Below, in pieces: positions 38,716 through 45,906 of a stretch of DNA of 48,692 nucleotides. Numbering within the stretch: position 1 is the stretch's first letter; each line of letters opens with the position of its first letter. The notes under the pieces are model-generated. The model saw only the letters and a list, made by a program, of their open reading frames with translations, searched no databases and was not told the origin of the DNA. The stretch is taken from IMG/VR virus record IMGVR_UViG_2654588006_000004, one strand, 5' to 3'. Made by a program: the position numbers and the translations under genes. This stretch comes from a virus (Duplodnaviria; Heunggongvirae; Uroviricota; Caudoviricetes).

Positions 38716-39573
38716 TTACCCCCTGAAGCCTGGCGGGATCGCACTATCCGGTAACGAGACGGTGTTAACCTGTCGGAGTAACGTCTCAGGTCGAACACCT
38801 TTCGGCGCGAACAAGCCCTGGTATTCATTGGCGATGCTGTGTCGAATCACCTGCTCAGGTGAAAAACCCTGCTGGCGGAATTTTTCCAGCTCCCGTATCG
38901 CCCCGTTAGCGCCCTGCTCCGTTCGAATCGGTTTTCGCAATGCCTGGCGAAATTCAACCCACTCACGCCAAAGCGAGACAGAAATCCAGTTCGGCAAAGC
39001 AATATCCAGAGGGTCAAACTTTTTGACACCTCGATTCCCCCGGGGGGGATTTAGGGGGGGATCTGTTTTTAGATCTTTATCTGTATCTTTATTAGTTGCC
39101 TTTGTGTTGACATCATGTTCAAACACCACTTCAACATCTGTTTGAACACCTGTTAAATTTCTCTCTTGTTTTGTTTGAACATCTGCTTCCTTTCTGCTTC
39201 TTCTGGCCTGAACAGATGCTTTTCCTGCGGCTGATTTTTTGGTTAATTTTTCCCTGACTGATGCCAGATCTTCCTCAATCCGAAGATGCACCCATTCCTC
39301 GCCGTTATCGCAAAAAAACTCCTGCAAGGATGGTTCAACATCAGCCCATCGCTCGTTAGTCAGACGGGCAATTTTTGCCAGCCTGTTTTTAGGTATTGGC
39401 TTTCCTGTTTGCCAGTAATTGAACATCAGCAACAAATACGCACCATGCTCCTCTGCTGACAAATGCATGGTGTCAGCCAGGTAATCAGCTATGTACAGTT
39501 GCATGTATGGTAATGCGGCCATAATTGCCCCGTATGATGCTGCCCGGTGGCTTAGAATAAGCACAAACAGCAT
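38716..39573 (-). CDS. ydaU: Replication initiation O-like protein
   Basis: 285 aa, same length as recalled Rac YdaU; upstream of the DnaC-like gene. Confidence 0.8.
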   Translation of the reverse strand: MLFVLILSHRAASYGAIMAALPYMQLYIADYLADTMHLSAEEHGAYLLLMFNYWQTGKPIPKNRLAKIARLTNERWADVEPSLQEFFCDNGEEWVHLRIEEDLASVREKLTKKSAAGKASVQARRSRKEADVQTKQERNLTGVQTDVEVVFEHDVNTKATNKDTDKDLKTDPPLNPPRGNRGVKKFDPLDIALPNWISVSLWREWVEFRQALRKPIRTEQGANGAIRELEKFRQQGFSPEQVIRHSIANEYQGLFAPKGVRPETLLRQVNTVSLPDSAIPPGFRG

Positions 39574-39585
39574 GGAAACTTTTGC

Positions 39586-40008
39586 TTAATGAACAATGAC
39601 AGAATCGTCGGAAGAACCGCCGCCGCTGAAATGCGCTTTCCGGTAAACGGCTTGGACTGCATCATCATGCGCATCAATTGCCGTACTTAACGCTTCCTGC
39701 GCCGCCAGTAATGCACGGCGTTCCAGGGTATCGAAGATGCAGAGTCGGTGACGCAGCTCGCGCGGAAGGATTGCCAGAATTGCTGGGATCAGCTTCTGAA
39801 TTTTTTCTCTTTGCGTTTTCGTTTCACCTTTCAACCAACGGTGATAGATATTCTGCTGATTGTTCCAGTCCTTGCCTGGAACCAGGGGCAATTCGCCGCC
39901 CCCCTGGCGCAGATATTCTTCAGTAATTGCATTGGCTACCCATGCCTGCCCTTTTTCGGCTGCTAGGGCAAACAACACTGATTCGATGTGCTCATGCTTG
40001 ATTTTCAT
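39586..40008 (-). CDS. ydaT: YdaT (CII-like regulator / toxic protein)
   Basis: 140 aa; matches recalled Rac YdaT; follows ydaS. Confidence 0.85.
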   Translation of the reverse strand: MKIKHEHIESVLFALAAEKGQAWVANAITEEYLRQGGGELPLVPGKDWNNQQNIYHRWLKGETKTQREKIQKLIPAILAILPRELRHRLCIFDTLERRALLAAQEALSTAIDAHDDAVQAVYRKAHFSGGGSSDDSVIVH

Positions 40009-40030
40009 GAATCATTTGCCTCTTGATGTT

Positions 40031-40327
40031 TCAGGTATGATCAAATGAGGATTTGTTACTGTCATTTAGTTGCTTCACTGACATATTCTGCGAACAACAT
40101 GCCGAACGTCGTAAATATGACCAGTCAATATCAGGACGAAGTTCTTCGCACAGAACCTCACCTCTTGTTGCACGTTCAATTGCTGGACATCTCTCGGCAG
40201 GCAATTGACGTACCCCTTTGATCCATTGATTTACGCTTGGAGGTGATACACCTAAAAGCCTAGCCATTGCTGATTGCCCACCGACAACAGCACAAGCTTG
40301 CTTGAATGAATAGTTCTCTTTTTTCAT
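40031..40327 (-). CDS. ydaS: YdaS (Cro-like HTH protein)
   Basis: 98 aa; HTH QSAMARLLGVSPPSVNQWIKG; divergent from racR. Confidence 0.85.
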   Translation of the reverse strand: MKKENYSFKQACAVVGGQSAMARLLGVSPPSVNQWIKGVRQLPAERCPAIERATRGEVLCEELRPDIDWSYLRRSACCSQNMSVKQLNDSNKSSFDHT

Positions 40328-40353
40328 CGAATGAACTCCAAAAACACACAGAA

Positions 40354-40383
40354 ATATTAGGCGACGCCTAACGCAATTGTCAA
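40354..40383 (-). promoter_or_regulatory. PR-like promoter for ydaS (consensus -35 TTGACA, 18-bp spacer, -10 TAATAT)
   Basis: Minus strand reads TTGACA-attgcgttaggcgtcgcc-TAATAT; the spacer contains the palindrome TTAGGCGACGCCTAA. Confidence 0.5.
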
Positions 40384-40437
40384 TAGGCTGTGCCTAATGC
40401 GGTAAGGGTAGGGATTGCCTAATGTAATGCGCATAGG
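40357..40437. promoter_or_regulatory. Operator cluster between ydaS and racR (TAGGC/GCCTA palindromes)
   Basis: TTAGGCG-A-CGCCTAA (40357-40371), TAGGC-TGT-GCCTA (40384-40396), imperfect GCCTAAT...CATAGG (40417-40437). Confidence 0.55.
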
Positions 40438-40450
40438 AGAATATTAAGCA

Positions 40451-40927
40451 ATGCTTAGTGGTAAAGACTTAGGCCGAGCGATAGAGCAGGCCATTAACAA
40501 AAAAATCGCATCGGGATCCGTCAAATCAAAGGCGGAGGTCGCACGCCACTTCAAAGTCCAACCACCATCAATTTATGACTGGATTAAGAAAGGCTCTATA
40601 AGTAAAGATAAACTTCCAGAATTATGGCGTTTCTTTTCTGATGTTGTTGGTCCAGAGCATTGGGGGCTTAACGAATACCCCATACCAACCCCCACCAATT
40701 CAGATACAAAAAGTGAACTTTTAGATATAAACAACCTTTATCAAGCAGCCTCTGATGAAATAAGAGCGATTGTAGCTTTCCTGTTATCTGGAAATGCTAC
40801 AGAACCAGATTGGGTTGACCACGATGTTCGCGCCTATATAGCAGCGATGGAAATGAAAGTGGGTAAGTATCTGAAAGCTCTAGAATCTGAACGGAAAAGC
40901 CAGAACATCACAAAAACTGGAACTTAA
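40451..40927 (+). CDS. racR: Prophage repressor RacR
   Basis: 158 aa; matches recalled RacR; GGAG SD 8 nt upstream. Confidence 0.9.
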   Translation: MLSGKDLGRAIEQAINKKIASGSVKSKAEVARHFKVQPPSIYDWIKKGSISKDKLPELWRFFSDVVGPEHWGLNEYPIPTPTNSDTKSELLDINNLYQAASDEIRAIVAFLLSGNATEPDWVDHDVRAYIAAMEMKVGKYLKALESERKSQNITKTGT

Positions 40928-41000
40928 ACTTATATGGTCTGACGGAAAACTCCTGGATTCCGTTATTTAACCCCCCCATCACTTTCTGCTGTCGCCATCA

Positions 41001-41063
41001 CCTATTAGGTTACGCTCAAAACATTAGGCATAGCCTATTGACAATCAATTAGGCATTACCTAT
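41001..41063. promoter_or_regulatory. Second operator cluster downstream of racR (OL-like)
   Basis: CCTA-T-TAGG (41001-41009), TAGGC-ATA-GCCTA (41025-41037), TTAGGCATTACCTA (41049-41062); same half-site as the racR-ydaS operators. Confidence 0.5.
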
Positions 41064-41066
41064 AGT
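41038..41066 (+). promoter_or_regulatory. PL-like promoter (TTGACA, 17-bp spacer, TATAGT) driving ydaG-ydaF and the early-left operon
   Basis: Read directly; -35 abuts one operator palindrome and the spacer/-10 overlap another. Confidence 0.5.
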
Positions 41067-41235
41067 TCCAGCATACCACCCACCCCGCCCCACAGAACGC
41101 CGGGCAATACTTCGAGTTACCAGGCAGTGGTAAGGGGTTAAGTAGCCAGCCCGAGGCGTATGAACATGACGGCGGGATTCAAATTTTGCAGTGCAGCAGT
41201 TAGTTCCGCCACCCGGCGTTAAGGGGAGAGATAAG

Positions 41236-41370
41236 ATGGTGCATTACGAAGTAGTTCAGTATTTGATGGATTGTTGCGGTATCACTTACAACCAGGCTGT
41301 GCAGGCTTTACGCAGCAACGACTGGGATCTCTGGCAGGCAGAAGTCGCTATACGTAGCAACAAGATGTGA
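41236..41370 (+). CDS. ydaG: Small protein YdaG
   Basis: 44-aa ORF MVHYEVVQYLMDCCGITYNQAVQALRSNDWDLWQAEVAIRSNKM (below the track cutoff); AAGGGGAG SD; matches recalled Rac YdaG. Confidence 0.7.
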   Translation: MVHYEVVQYLMDCCGITYNQAVQALRSNDWDLWQAEVAIRSNKM

Positions 41371-41380
41371 GATTCGCAAA

Positions 41381-41536
41381 ATGCAAAAAATCGACCTCGG
41401 CAACAACGAATCCCTGGTGTGCGGCGTGTTCCCCAACCAGGATGGAACGTTCACTGCCATGACGTATACCAAAAGCAAAACATTTAAAACCGAAACTGGT
41501 GCGCGCCGATGGTTGGAGAAGCACACAGTAAGCTAA
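41381..41536 (+). CDS. ydaF: Small protein YdaF
   Basis: 51-aa ORF MQKIDLGNNESLVCGVFPNQDGTFTAMTYTKSKTFKTETGARRWLEKHTVS translated by hand; 10 nt after ydaG. Confidence 0.7.
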   Translation: MQKIDLGNNESLVCGVFPNQDGTFTAMTYTKSKTFKTETGARRWLEKHTVS

Positions 41537-42021
41537 CGATTAAAACGTCTACTCCTGCTGTTCCAGAATAACTTCATAAAATGGGAGTATTTTTCGGTGA
41601 CGAGATAATAAGAACAGTTTGCGCTATCACTCTGATGTTGAATGATGCCCTTCCGTTCTAATTTTTTCATAACCGGGTTACGGCAAGGAGAAGTGATAAT
41701 AAGATTTCCTGTTTTAAGGAAATCTTTAAATACAGCGATTTCTTTCTCAGATAAACGAAGCAATACTCGTTGCTCTGGTAGTAATGAATAATGCTTTTGA
41801 ATATGTGCTCGCAATCTTGAGAAGGAAATGGCGACCACGAAAGAAAAGGCAAAAACGATAATCTGAAAGAGCCAAGGTATTTCAGTATAAGCATTGAATG
41901 CGGCAGTAAACTCTTTCGGTATCAGCCAGAGAGTGAGACCAAAAATGATAATCGTATACATAAGTCTTTCGAGTGGCTCGTTAGCAAAAAGTTTCAACAA
42001 TGGAGTAAATACATCCAACAT
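41533..42021 (-). CDS. sieB: Superinfection exclusion protein SieB
   Basis: 162 aa from MLDVFTPLLKLFANEPLERLMYTIIIFGLTLWLIP...; membrane protein; track ORF extends upstream to 42144. Confidence 0.85.
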   Translation of the reverse strand: MLDVFTPLLKLFANEPLERLMYTIIIFGLTLWLIPKEFTAAFNAYTEIPWLFQIIVFAFSFVVAISFSRLRAHIQKHYSLLPEQRVLLRLSEKEIAVFKDFLKTGNLIITSPCRNPVMKKLERKGIIQHQSDSANCSYYLVTEKYSHFMKLFWNSRSRRFNR

Positions 42022-42462
42022 ATCAATAACTCTCAACTGTAAGGGTATTGAAATGTTAACACAAGCTCTCGCTGTAGGGGTATAGCCGAGACCACCGAAG
42101 CCCGGAGGTGGTGAAATAAAACCGGGCACAACACGAAGGCGCATTTCCGATATCCATAAAGAGTCGGTCTTGTCTGTTAAATTTAAATGGTGGGAGTGCG
42201 CCTCCGGTTGTAAATAACGACATTGCTGTGTGTAGTCCTGGCGGCATCAGTTTTTTTCTTGAAGTTCGGCTGATGTCCGCCCTTTTTAAAGTGAATTTTG
42301 TGATGCGGTGAATGCGGCTAAGCGCACGTGGCACAGTTAAAAGTCATGTTAGTCCTTATTGGTTTGGGTGGGAAAGCCGACTGTAATTGTTAACTGGTTG
42401 CAGTCACCTGGAGGCACCAGGCACCGCATCAACAAAGTTCATTTGTAAAAATGGAGATAATT

Positions 42463-42684
42463 ATGATTGCACATCACTTCGGAACTGATGAAATACCACG
42501 TCAGTGTGTGACTCCTGGCGATTATGTTCTTCATGAAGGCCGGACATATATTGCCTCGGCAAACAATATTAAAAAGCGAAAACTATATATTCGTAACCTG
42601 ACCACAAAAACATGCATTACTGACCGCATGATTAAAGTCTTCCTCGGTCGTGATGGTTTACCTGTAAAGGCGGAGTCATGGTGA
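42463..42684 (+). CDS. kilR: Cell-division inhibitor KilR
   Basis: 73 aa [35 protein letters not shown]... matches recalled KilR; GGAG SD. Confidence 0.9.
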
Positions 42685-42854
42685 TGCCTAAGAAAATAAA
42701 ATGTGCTTACCACCTTTGCAAAAAAGACGTTGAAGAAAGCAAAGCTATTGAAAGAATGCTTCACTTCATGCACGGGATTTTATCAAAAGACGAACCGAGA
42801 AAATATTGCAGTGAAGCTTGTGCCGAAAAAGACCAGATGGCACATGAACTTTAA
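42684..42854 (+). CDS. ydaE: Small Cys-containing protein YdaE
   Basis: 56-aa [59 protein letters not shown]; ATG overlaps the kilR stop (TGATG); below the track cutoff. Confidence 0.7.
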   Translation: MPKKIKCAYHLCKKDVEESKAIERMLHFMHGILSKDEPRKYCSEACAEKDQMAHEL

Positions 42855-42928
42855 TTAATTGACTATTCGAAACTGAATTTATGCCAGAAATGGCAGGTAT
42901 TCGCTCAACCTTAATTAAGGAGAAAAAC

Positions 42929-43204
42929 ATGATTACCAATTATGAAGCCACTGTTGTAACTACCGATGACATTGTTCACGAGGTGAATCTGGAAGGAAAG
43001 CGCATTGGCTACGTAATTAAAACAGAAAATAAAGAAACCCCATTCACTGTGGTTGATATCGATGGTCCATCAGGCAACGTAAAAACACTTGATGAAGGTG
43101 TCAAAAAAATGTGCCTGGTGCATATCGGAAAGAATCTGCCCGCAGAAAAAAAAGCCGAATTTCTGGCAACTCTAATTGCAATGAAATTAAAAGGTGAAAT
43201 CTGA
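42929..43204 (+). CDS. racC: RacC
   Basis: 91 aa from MITNYEATVVTTDDIVHEVNLEGKR...; AAGGAG SD. Confidence 0.85.
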   Translation: MITNYEATVVTTDDIVHEVNLEGKRIGYVIKTENKETPFTVVDIDGPSGNVKTLDEGVKKMCLVHIGKNLPAEKKAEFLATLIAMKLKGEI

Positions 43205-43305
43205 AAGAAATAGCCTGCGTATGGCGCAGGCTATGAACAGTGTGTATCCGGCAAGATCATTCACTGAACAAAACGAATTTTAATCTGAGTTGAGGTTAAA
43301 AAACA

Positions 43306-45906
43306 ATGAGCACAAAACCACTCTTCCTGTTACGGAAAGCGAAAAAATCATCCGGTGAACCTGACGTCGTCCTGTGGGCAAGCAACGATTTTGAATCGAC
43401 CTGTGCCACTCTGGACTACCTGATCGTTAAGTCAGGTAAAAAACTGAGCAGCTATTTTAAAGCTGTTGCCACGAATTTTCCTGTCGTTAATGACCTGCCC
43501 GCTGAAGGTGAGATCGATTTTACCTGGAGTGAACGCTATCAACTCAGCAAAGACTCCATGACATGGGAACTAAAACCGGGAGCAGCACCAGACAACGCTC
43601 ATTATCAAGGCAATACCAACGTCAACGGCGAAGACATGACTGAGATTGAGGAGAATATGCTACTCCCAATTTCTGGCCAGGAACTGCCCATTCGTTGGCT
43701 TGCTCAACACGGCAGCGAAAAACCGGTAACGCACGTTTCACGCGACGGACTCCAGGCATTACACATTGCTCGGGCTGAAGAACTACCGGCTGTTACTGCC
43801 CTGGCTGTTTCCCACAAAACCAGCCTGCTCGACCCGCTGGAAATTCGCGAACTCCACAAACTGGTTCGTGACACTGACAAAGTTTTCCCTAATCCTGGTA
43901 ATTCAAACCTGGGACTGATAACTGCTTTTTTCGAAGCATACCTGAACGCTGACTACACCGATCGAGGACTGCTGACAAAAGAGTGGATGAAGGGTAATCG
44001 TGTTTCACACATCACTCGCACGGCTTCCGGTGCTAATGCTGGCGGCGGAAACCTCACCGATCGCGGCGAAGGTTTCGTACACGATCTGACGTCACTGGCG
44101 CGCGACGTAGCCACTGGCGTACTGGCCCGTTCAATGGATCTGGACATCTATAACCTTCATCCGGCACACGCTAAACGCATTGAGGAAATTATCGCTGAAA
44201 ATAAACCGCCCTTTTCTGTTTTCCGCGACAAATTCATCACCATGCCTGGCGGGCTGGATTATTCCCGCGCCATCGTGGTTGCGTCCGTAAAAGAAGCACC
44301 AATTGGGATCGAGGTCATCCCCGCGCACGTCACTGAATATCTGAACAAAGTACTGACTGAAACCGATCATGCCAACCCTGATCCGGAAATCGTGGATATT
44401 GCCTGCGGTCGCTCCTCTGCCCCGATGCCGCAGCGAGTAACAGAAGAAGGAAAACAGGATGATGAAGAAAAACCGCAACCATCTGGAACAACGGCAGTTG
44501 AACAGGGAGAGGCTGAAACAATGGAACCGGACGCAACTGAACATCATCAGGACACGCAGCCGCTGGATGCTCAGTCACAGGTAAATTCTGTTGATGCGAA
44601 ATATCAGGAACTGCGGGCAGAACTCCATGAAGCCCGGAAAAACATTCCATCAAAAAATCCTGTCGATGCCGATAAATTGCTTGCTGCATCACGTGGTGAA
44701 TTTGTTGACGGAATTAGCGACCCGAACGATCCGAAATGGGTAAAGGGGATCCAGACTCGCGATTGTGTGTACCAGAACCAGCCAGAAACGGAAAAAACCA
44801 GCCCAGATATGAATCAACCTGAGCCAGTAGTGCAACAGGAACCGGAAATAGCCTGCAATGCCTGCGGCCAGACTGGCGGGGATAACTGCCCTGACTGTGG
44901 TGCGGTGATGGGCGACGCAACATACCAGGAAACATTCGATGAAGAGAGTCAGGTTGAAGCTAAGGAAAATGATCCGGAGGAAATGGAAGGCGCTGAACAT
45001 CCGCACAATGAGAATGCTGGCAGCGATCCGCATCACGATTGCAGTGATGAAACTGGCGAAGTCGCAGATCCCGTAATCGTAGAAGACATAGAGCCAGGTA
45101 TTTATTACGGAATTTCGAATGAGAATTACCACGCGGGTCCCGGTATCAGTAAGTCTCAGCTCGATGACATTGCTGATACTCCGGCACTATATTTGTGGCG
45201 TAAAAATGCCCCCGTGGACACCACAAAGACAAAAACGCTCGATTTAGGAACTGCTTTCCACTGCCGGGTACTTGAACCGGAAGAATTCAGTAACCGCTTT
45301 ATCGTAGCACCTGAATTTAACCGCCGTACAAACGCCGGAAAAGAAGAAGAGAAAGCGTTTCTGATGGAATGCGCAAGCACAGGAAAAACGGTTATCACTG
45401 CGGAAGAAGGCCGGAAAATTGAACTCATGTATCAAAGCGTTATGGCTTTGCCGCTGGGGCAATGGCTTGTTGAAAGCGCCGGACACGCTGAATCATCAAT
45501 TTACTGGGAAGATCCTGAAACAGGAATTTTGTGTCGGTGCCGTCCGGACAAAATTATCCCTGAATTTCACTGGATCATGGACGTGAAAACTACGGCGGAT
45601 ATTCAACGATTCAAAACCGCTTATTACGACTACCGCTATCACGTTCAGGATGCATTCTACAGTGACGGTTATGAAGCACAGTTTGGAGTGCAGCCAACTT
45701 TCGTTTTTCTGGTTGCCAGCACAACTATTGAATGCGGACGTTATCCGGTTGAAATTTTCATGATGGGCGAAGAAGCAAAACTGGCAGGTCAACAGGAATA
45801 TCACCGCAATCTGCGAACCCTGTCTGACTGCCTGAATACCGATGAATGGCCAGCTATTAAGACATTATCACTGCCCCGCTGGGCTAAGGAATATGCAAAT
45901 GACTAA
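43306..45906 (+). CDS. recE: Exonuclease VIII RecE
   Basis: 866 aa, the recalled RecE length; long acidic N-terminal region and C-terminal exonuclease domain; overlaps recT. Confidence 0.95.

Follow-up and report, generated by a model that had tools for sequence, protein, structure and literature searches.

Identity of the three small genes

The stretch of viral DNA analyzed here (the window, 48,692 nucleotides in full) raised the question of whether three short reading frames, each of fewer than 60 amino acids even from its furthest upstream start codon, are true genes, how they are expressed, and what they encode. The window is E. coli Rac prophage. Both direct reading of the sequence and RefSeq CDSs at the same coordinates bore out the claim of an initial annotation, made by hand translation, that three tightly packed short genes lie below the ORF cutoff. 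These genes and two of their neighbors are as follows.

41236-41370, plus strand: ydaG, from the ATG at 41236 to the TGA at 41370, 44 amino acids
41381-41536, plus strand: ydaF, from the ATG at 41381 to the TAA at 41536, 51 amino acids
41533-42021, minus strand: sieB (context), RefSeq CDS of 162 amino acids, matching Pfam SieB and PHROG 6399, convergent with ydaF
42463-42684, plus strand: kilR (context), RefSeq CDS, FtsZ inhibitor gene, NCBIfam PRK11354 at 161 bits
42684-42854, plus strand: ydaE, from the ATG at 42684 to the TAA at 42854, 56 amino acids

The RefSeq CDSs coincided exactly with the proposed coordinates of all three genes, both in a K-12 derivative and in a strain whose sequence here differs at a single position. 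Comparison with the annotated Rac small proteins, which the initial annotation had suggested, gave matching sequences, and the names ydaG, ydaF, and ydaE were correct. RefSeq lists YdaG as a phage protein (WP_000233809.1), the second product as a YdaF family protein (WP_001169151.1), and the third as a YdaE family protein; PHROG family matches were found for each of them. Their position between racR, sieB, kilR, and racC is that of annotated E. coli genomes, and the K-12 Rac prophage (RefSeq/EcoCyc annotation) has them in the same position and order, with the same strand relations and lengths. K-12 YdaF is identical to that of the window (WP_001169151.1 in both records). Residue 15 of YdaG is Gly in the window and Ser in the K-12 derivative. 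At residue 2 the YdaE of the window has Pro, owing to an A-to-C change at 42687 that is private to it; Thr or a different residue occupies this position in all other alleles examined. In a separate comparison, the window was colinear with strain B-1109 only from approximately 38 kb onward.

ydaG, ydaF, and ydaE are genuine, already annotated small protein genes of the Rac early leftward region, which corresponds to the lambda PL operon. As they are already annotated in Rac, the initial finding was correct but ordinary.

Substitution patterns and the minus-strand ORF

A codon-level substitution analysis was performed on 162 related loci. For diversity, the IMG/VR scan was led by the most divergent allele; an earlier scan had returned only copies of 98 to 100% identity. 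Alleles of ydaE were extracted with tblastn guidance, as ungapped blastn misaligned the divergent copies. The substitution patterns across the 162 loci indicate that all three genes evolve as coding sequence in the frames given above. In the sample of approximately 160 loci, frameshift or nonsense alleles were absent from ydaG and rare in ydaF and ydaE, and the starts, Shine-Dalgarno sequences (SDs), and gene junctions were kept despite differing immunity regions. The dN/dS ratio was 0.15 for ydaF, with a strong third-position bias (29/37/70 changes by codon position), 0.46 for ydaE, and approximately 0.17 for kilR. For ydaG, the pooled dN/dS was 0.18 with a synonymous excess (p=0.003), the ORF was intact in length and frame in all 35 distinct alleles, and 27 of the 44 residues were invariant; one variant carried an in-frame duplication of 3 codons. 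Changes in ydaG were spread almost without bias over the codon positions (9/11/13) and the gene has no homologue outside Escherichia (see below), so protein-level constraint on it rests on few substitutions.

A longer ORF lies on the opposite strand.

41308-41526, minus strand: antisense ORF of 72 amino acids with a GTG start, opposite ydaF and the 3' end of ydaG

It is the longest in the region, and it could be argued that this ORF is the true gene and ydaF its antisense shadow. Its frame also has an apparent synonymous excess (ratio 0.40), but a frame whose third codon positions fall on those of ydaF is expected to show such apparent constraint. Moreover, no SD precedes the ORF (+1.2 kcal/mol), and stops or indels disrupt it in 34 of 57 distinct alleles that have ydaG and ydaF intact. 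No family match to it was found in Pfam, NCBIfam, or PHROGs; ydaF belongs to a Pfam family, DUF1391, with 292 protein clusters across Escherichia, Shigella, and Salmonella. The case for the minus-strand ORF as a gene is effectively refuted already, and its disrupted alleles and lack of a family match mark it as spurious, as had been judged by hand.

Promoter, operators, and leader

Three features were identified upstream of ydaG.

41025-41037 and 41050-41062: two operator-like palindromes, TAGG-N5-CCTA, the first abutting the -35 element and the second in the spacer/-10 region
41038-41066, plus strand: putative sigma-70 promoter, PL-like, TTGACA-17 nt-TATAGT, identified by its agreement with the consensus at 11 of 12 positions
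41067-41235, plus strand: 5' leader of ydaG-ydaF, C-rich at its 5' end and invariant in its core

The promoter is one of two such consensus matches in 3 kb, against 6.4 expected. The palindrome occurs five times in the window, against 0.3 expected, and the remaining three copies (at 40358, 40384, and 40409) all lie in the racR-ydaS intergenic region, in which RacR operators have been mapped experimentally (PMC11879457). From this shared motif we infer that RacR would bind at 41025-41062. A sigma-70 promoter beside a repressor gene, overlapped by the operator motif of the racR-ydaS region, as seen here in sequence, is the lambdoid PL/OL layout. When RacR was titrated, ydaF, ydaG, ydaE, and racC rose approximately 40-fold in RNA-seq (PMC6765115, PMC11014345), and CRISPRi of racR derepressed ydaE and ydaG (bioRxiv 10.64898/2026.09.06.749655). 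The description of the promoter as PL-like is supported both by this published RacR-dependent derepression and by the two operator-type palindromes, which are common only to this site and the racR-ydaS region. In normal growth ydaG, ydaF, and ydaE are silent, and Rac is defective (PMC6765115).

The leader shares 75 to 100% identity across prophages with different repressors. Its folding z-score was just -2.2, with a single compensatory base pair and no match in Rfam, and thus no claim of a structured RNA is made.

Translation signals and operon layout

SD strength was calculated as the anti-SD pairing energy for each start codon and ranked against all ATGs in the window. The initial annotation had credited both ydaG and ydaF with good SDs. 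This held for ydaG (AAGGGGAG, -8.3 kcal/mol, top 3% of window ATGs) but not for ydaF, the SD of which is weak (-2.7 kcal/mol, the median of window ATGs). As ydaF is almost without an SD and starts 10 nt past the ydaG stop (10 to 12 nt in all loci examined), re-initiation by ribosomes terminating on ydaG is most likely, and translation of ydaF probably depends on this coupling. At its other end, ydaF terminates at 41536 and the convergent sieB at 41533, confirming the overlap of 4 nt that had been read by hand; a longer in-frame sieB ORF, from 42144, would encode 203 amino acids. The reported overlap of the ydaE ATG with the kilR stop was likewise confirmed, as the TGA at 42682-42684 shares its A with the ATG (TGATG). 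This overlap was kept in 139 of 150 loci, and ydaE has an SD, GGCGGAG, of -7.1 kcal/mol (top 6% of window ATGs). In the literature searched, no ribosome profiling, tagging, or proteomics was found that shows translation of ydaG, ydaF, or ydaE.

Many prophages have no ydaG; where it is present, it forms an exact indel that separates the SD from the start of the DUF1391 gene, and ydaF is without an SD of its own. ydaG looks like a small, Escherichia-only cassette that parted the DUF1391 gene from its original SD and captured the latter by inserting between the two. A further element lies between the two gene pairs.

42227-42282, plus strand: DicF-like hairpin followed by a T-run, Rfam DicF (RF00039) at 39.1 bits, E 3e-7

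The score is below the Rfam gathering score of 48, with only the 3' stem-loop aligning well and the 5' 14 nt diverging. The folding energy was -21 kcal/mol (z-score -2.9), and the hairpin looks like an intrinsic terminator between ydaG-ydaF and kilR-ydaE. With such a terminator between the pairs, ydaG-ydaF-kilR-ydaE would not be one uninterrupted unit; ydaG-ydaF and kilR-ydaE have been listed as operons (PMC12218254).

Predicted products

YdaG matched Pfam UBA_4 (PF14555) at 24.1 bits (E 3e-5), a small margin over the gathering cutoff of 21.8, and 8 of 10 YdaG variants matched the family at an E of 0.01 or less. An AlphaFold2 model (pLDDT 74) has three helices of UBA-like lengths, and UBA domains (FAM100B, FAF1, HYPK, NAC, EF-Ts, p47) dominated the top of the Foldseek list obtained with it. 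YdaG thereby looks like a three-helix UBA-like mini-protein. E. coli has no ubiquitin. A published description (PMC13348028) predicts YdaG to be a three-helix miniprotein. Neither a word-indexed search nor a full HMMER scan covering 1.8 billion representatives revealed homologues of YdaG outside Escherichia, other matches being spurious repeat proteins, and no significant solved relatives were identified by sequence for either YdaG or YdaE. YdaF, which is highly conserved, belongs by its sequence to DUF1391 (PF07151, 98.3 bits, E 1.9e-28, covering positions 1-47 of the 48 in the profile, gathering cutoff 27.3).

YdaE matched NCBIfam YdaE_coli (NF041288) over the whole profile (1-50 of 50) at 86.1 bits, with a cutoff of 35 bits, and its homologues carry the precomputed Pfam annotation PF27493 (YdaE). 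The 56 residues and four cysteines noted by hand were found as described: Cys7, Cys12, Cys42, and Cys46 form the pattern CX4C...CX3C and are putative zinc ligands. Conservation of each was 90% or higher in a set of 13 diverse homologues, and all four were present in 40 of 41 distinct alleles (146 loci), the other allele carrying C7Y. A structure model with fold matches was obtained, according to which YdaE is predicted to be a TRASH-like zinc finger, that is, a four-cysteine treble clef (TRASH/eL24-like). Relative to the TRASH/eL24-type and Rtr1/RPAP2-type treble clefs, the last ligand of YdaE is Cys and not His. Classical TRASH ligands are arranged as C-X2-C...C-X3-C, with a first pair, CX2C, unlike the CX4C of YdaE. 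The Pfam Rtr1/RPAP2 profile (PF04181) scored 28.0 bits, below its gathering cutoff of 33; the name "Rtr1/RPAP2 family protein phosphatase," given to relatives of YdaE in some sources, is an over-annotation for a 56-amino-acid protein.

Proposed expression and alternative explanations

The best overall explanation, and in our assessment a highly probable one, is that these are genuine Rac early-left genes, probably controlled by RacR and translationally coupled, which encode mini-proteins. In a lysogen, the region would be kept silent by RacR bound to the two operators that overlap the near-consensus promoter, a short way downstream of racR. Upon removal of RacR, transcription would proceed through the conserved leader of approximately 170 nt, cover ydaG and ydaF, and continue into sieB in the antisense direction. 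Translation of ydaG would start from its strong SD, and that of ydaF by re-initiation after the ydaG stop. Transcripts passing the DicF-like hairpin would carry kilR, to which ydaE would be translationally coupled via the overlapping TGATG. The products would be single-domain mini-proteins: UBA-like (YdaG), DUF1391 (YdaF), and zinc finger (YdaE).

Two other explanations concern whether the peptides matter at all. ydaG may be translated into a functionless peptide, as a young leader ORF that feeds ribosomes to the SD-poor ydaF or shields the transcript from Rho. The restriction of ydaG to Escherichia, its even spread of substitutions over codon positions, its presence as an indel missing from many prophages, and the missing SD of ydaF wherever ydaG is present would all fit, but the preserved length and frame (the one duplication being in frame), the synonymous excess and invariant residues, and a predicted fold with UBA_4 above threshold argue for a selected product, and we regard a functionless YdaG as unlikely. 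It is very improbable that the ORFs are all relics decaying in a cryptic prophage, open by chance and no longer under selection. Rac is indeed defective and the genes silent in normal growth, and Tn-seq insertions in ydaE and ydaG were enriched, not depleted, under chemical stress (PMC5064937); however, dN/dS is well below 1 for each gene, starts, SDs, and junctions are conserved among loci with different immunity regions, isolated phages of Escherichia carry the genes as well, and HK225, Gifsy-1/2, and SPN3UB have relatives of ydaE.

For the preferred reading, that of selected early genes, our best guess is that YdaG, YdaF, and YdaE may bind host or phage proteins in early development. YdaE may act together with KilR or RecET, given that the order kil, ydaE-like, racC-like, recE is seen again in other lambdoid phages. 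A bolder proposal is that kilR-ydaE is a functional pair, in which the coupled zinc finger YdaE would bind KilR and tune, chaperone, or neutralize it, while YdaG, as a stand-alone UBA-like domain, would capture a host protein. The conserved TGATG coupling, the recurrence of kil-ydaE synteny in distant lambdoid phages (HK225 and Gifsy-2), and the protein-binding type of the folds allow this proposal, which we consider doubtful.

As ydaG, ydaF, and ydaE are already known genes, the additions made here are modest. The locus serves as a positive control for genome scanning, in which hand translation recovered three true genes hidden by a 60-amino-acid ORF cutoff and rightly discarded a longer antisense ORF. 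The cassette-like ydaG, the probable ydaF coupling, the RacR-type operators, the conserved kil-ydaE pairing, and the predicted UBA-like and TRASH-like folds add testable handles on the much-studied Rac/Qin early-left region.

Comparison with lambda, P22, and Qin

The Rac promoter lies beside racR and overlaps repeated operator-like motifs, an arrangement like that of PL in lambda and P22, which adjoins the repressor gene and has repeated operators across it; in Rac, two copies of the motif were found at this left site, compared with three in the racR-ydaS region. In both P22 and Rac, sieB runs opposite to the early transcript. The sas antisense RNA of P22 reportedly derives from the PL transcript. 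It acts on sieB mRNA (PMC12197685). Further downstream, kil and recombination genes follow in Rac as in this operon type, the latter being recET in place of exo/bet. In contrast to lambda and P22, Rac has no recognizable N-like antiterminator, and ydaG and ydaF occupy that position.

The Qin dicB operon (ydfA-ydfB-ydfC-dicF-dicB-ydfD) differs from Rac in several of its parts: Qin-type loci are without ydaG, ydfB and ydfC are found where Rac has the antisense sieB, the inhibitor is DicB rather than KilR, and the downstream gene is ydfD (DUF1482) rather than ydaE. The Rac DicF-like element is also without the 5' ftsZ-pairing segment of DicF. However, both prophages have the same layout: after a repressor gene come a conserved leader and an early DUF1391 gene (ydfA in Qin, corresponding to ydaF in Rac), and then a DicF or DicF-like hairpin, a cell division inhibitor, and a small overlapping downstream gene, with the leader and DUF1391 gene of the two sharing approximately 85% DNA identity.

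Gene content of the region

The window is the Escherichia coli Rac prophage, in reverse orientation relative to the K-12 map. Using positions 40900-43300 as a megablast query, matches were found in 4,431 of 5,426 complete E. coli genomes, with at least 80% query coverage in 1,339. Over 5.4 kb (39400-44800), the best match, strain B-1109, is one base apart, and a K-12 derivative shows 12 base differences. The RefSeq annotation of these two records was transferred to the window, giving the following genes:

40451-40927, +, racR (Rac prophage repressor)
41236-41370, +, ydaG (44-aa "phage protein" or hypothetical protein)
41381-41536, +, ydaF
41533-42021, -, sieB
42463-42684, +, kilR (FtsZ inhibitor)
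42684-42854, +, ydaE
42929-43204, +, racC
from 43306, +, recE

The initial annotation had placed three short, tightly packed genes, ydaG, ydaF, and ydaE, at 41236-42854, and the RefSeq genes match these positions exactly. Direct reading confirmed their lengths (44, 51, and 56 aa, respectively; all below 60 aa even when extended to the most distant 5' start codon), the presence of four cysteines in YdaE (C7, C12, C42, and C46), the TGATG stop/start overlap of kilR with ydaE, and the 4-nt tail-to-tail overlap of ydaF and sieB. The observation is thus confirmed and its interpretation supported; the three genes are an already known feature, to which only small corrections and additions are made here.

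At position 42687, the window has a C where the closest genome has an A, which turns YdaE codon 2 from Thr into Pro. This segment is present in 1,779 complete E. coli genomes, none of which matched it exactly, and Pro2 was found in none of 146 other loci; the change is either a private single nucleotide polymorphism or a sequencing error.

Coding evidence for ydaG, ydaF, and ydaE

A set of 162 related loci was drawn from two IMG/VR scans, public assemblies with divergent YdaG variants, and annotated genomes. Each of the 35 distinct DNA alleles of ydaG retained an intact open reading frame (ORF) with the start and length unchanged. Distinct changes in ydaG comprised 13 synonymous and 20 nonsynonymous (23.7 and 108.3 sites, respectively; binomial P = 0.003), with a pooled pairwise dN/dS of 0.18, and one protein variant carries an in-frame three-residue duplication. 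As the codon-position bias is weak (9/11/13), this coding evidence is moderate rather than overwhelming. The Escherichia marmotae allele has a 2-nt indel immediately 5' of the ATG, which speaks against the longer ydaG start at GTG-41191 used by some gene callers.

For ydaF, the pooled dN/dS was 0.15, changes were clearly concentrated at third codon positions (29/37/70), and residues 1 to 45 are nearly invariant. YdaF is a DUF1391 protein (98 bits) with relatives in 292 clusters at 90% identity from Escherichia, Shigella, and Salmonella, the best 120 of which are at least 76% identical to it. Both ends and all four cysteines of YdaE are conserved; its middle (residues 13 to 40; 42720-42805) falls into two allele classes, heavily divergent over the central 28 residues, which raises the pooled dN/dS to 0.46. 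Exchange of modules by recombination is one possible cause of this divergence, and diversifying selection acting on a binding surface is another.

An ORF on the minus strand at 41308-41526, antisense to ydaF, had been considered likely spurious, and this judgment held. Its frame shares third codon positions with ydaF, which explains both why it is open in Rac and its mirrored synonymous excess. Among 57 distinct alleles, 34 (49 loci) carry stop codons or frameshifts that break it, and all 34 retain intact ydaG and ydaF. It lacks a Shine-Dalgarno (SD) sequence, and Pfam, NCBIfam, and PHROGs gave no match to it, all of which effectively rules it out as a real gene.

A literature search found neither direct translation evidence nor a functional study for ydaG, ydaF, or ydaE, and we infer the roles of their products solely from fold type and gene context. 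The only phenotype data found come from Tn-seq (PMC5064937): during chemical stress, insertions in ydaE and ydaG were enriched, which may represent polar or prophage-level effects.

Translation signals and the ydaG cassette

Good SDs had been proposed for both ydaG and ydaF. This holds for ydaG, whose SD (AAGGGGAG) pairs with the anti-SD at -8.3 kcal/mol, in the top 3% among all ATGs in the window, but not for ydaF, at -2.7 kcal/mol, the median of those ATGs. The ydaE SD, GGCGGAG, reaches -7.1 kcal/mol (top 6%).

The racR-to-ydaF interval was aligned with prophages without ydaG, in which the junction AAGGGGAAA|TGAGGTCAGCATG sets a strong SD immediately 5' of the DUF1391 gene. Rac-type prophages carry the ydaG ORF exactly between the SD and the TGAG of this junction, so that the SD belongs to ydaG, and ydaF starts 10 to 12 nt 3' of the ydaG stop. 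Given this arrangement, ydaF would be translated through coupling to, or reinitiation after, ydaG. Compared with related loci L003 (1640-1682) and L004, the segment at 41221-41381 shows ydaG acting as an insertion/deletion cassette fitted precisely between the strong SD and the start codon of the DUF1391 gene. The ydaG-ydaF pair is retained beside at least four different repressor genes.

Proposed regulation at the PL-like promoter

The promoter upstream of ydaG, named for its likeness to lambda PL, matches TTGACA-17-TATAGT at 41038-41066. Shuffled sequences predict 0.3 copies of the palindrome TAGG-N5-CCTA in the 48.7-kb window, which contains exactly five. Three of them are in the racR-ydaS intergenic region (40358, 40384, and 40409; span, 40358-40421), where RacR operators have been experimentally mapped (PMC11879457), and two bracket the PL-like promoter (41025-41037 and 41050-41062), both clusters having an internal spacing of approximately 25 bp. 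The palindrome probably represents the half-site pattern of the RacR operator, and its recurrence suggests that RacR would also bind the left site (41025-41062).

In published transcriptomes, titration of RacR by a foreign C protein raised ydaF, ydaG, ydaE, and racC approximately 40-fold and kilR more than 70-fold (PMC6765115, PMC11014345), and racR CRISPRi derepresses ydaG, ydaE, and kilR (bioRxiv 10.64898/2026.09.06.749655). Operons have been tabulated as ydaG-ydaF and kilR-ydaE (PMC12218254). Since neither an operator motif nor a promoter match was found upstream of kilR, co-derepression of kilR-ydaE would most simply be due to read-through from the PL-like promoter.

The leader of approximately 170 nt (41067-41235, +) is 75 to 100% conserved among prophages whose repressors are unrelated. 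Its 5' end (ACCACCCACCCCGCCCCACAGAAC) is rich in C and poor in G, its core (AAGTAGCCAGCCYGAGGCRTAYGAACATGACGGC) is invariant, and it contains an upstream ORF of 20 codons (41160-41222); no Rfam match was obtained for it, and covariation was almost nil. It could be a candidate Rho-loading or other regulatory site.

Modular junctions and operon layout

The last five to six codons of ydaF (41515-41536; also in related loci L085-L087, L003, and L004) vary with the downstream module, reading EKHTVS, AIHSGE, ERNSGE, ARNTC, and others after RRWL. Together with the replacement of sieB by unrelated genes in some prophages, this places a recombination (mosaic) junction within the ydaF 3' end. Two in-frame ATGs are present in sieB (41533-42144, -), giving 203 aa from 42144 and 162 aa from 42021, both with weak SDs; RefSeq uses the shorter form and another gene caller the longer. 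The sieB gene of P22 also uses an internal start, which yields an additional product, Esc.

Phage record PP818812.1 (labeled H29 and H60) was submitted as a phage of Actinobacillus pleuropneumoniae. Its YdaE gene shares 96% identity with that of Rac, and it also has a kil gene and a Rac-type leader (76% identity), which is unexpected for a Pasteurellaceae host.

Two further elements precede kilR, both scoring below the Rfam threshold:

42227-42282, +, DicF-like element between sieB and kilR (39.1 bits; gathering score, 48)
42284-42470, +, STnc100-like stretch forming the kilR 5' untranslated region (35.5 bits)

Only the 3' stem-loop of the DicF-like element is conserved, and not the 5' ftsZ-pairing part. 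With a folding energy of -21 kcal/mol and a trailing CUUUUU, the element resembles an intrinsic terminator. The prophage-wide spread of dicF-like sequences was reportedly described in the 1990s. The Qin dicB operon parallels the Rac layout, as both contain a DUF1391 gene, a DicF or DicF-like hairpin, a division inhibitor, and a small overlapping gene.
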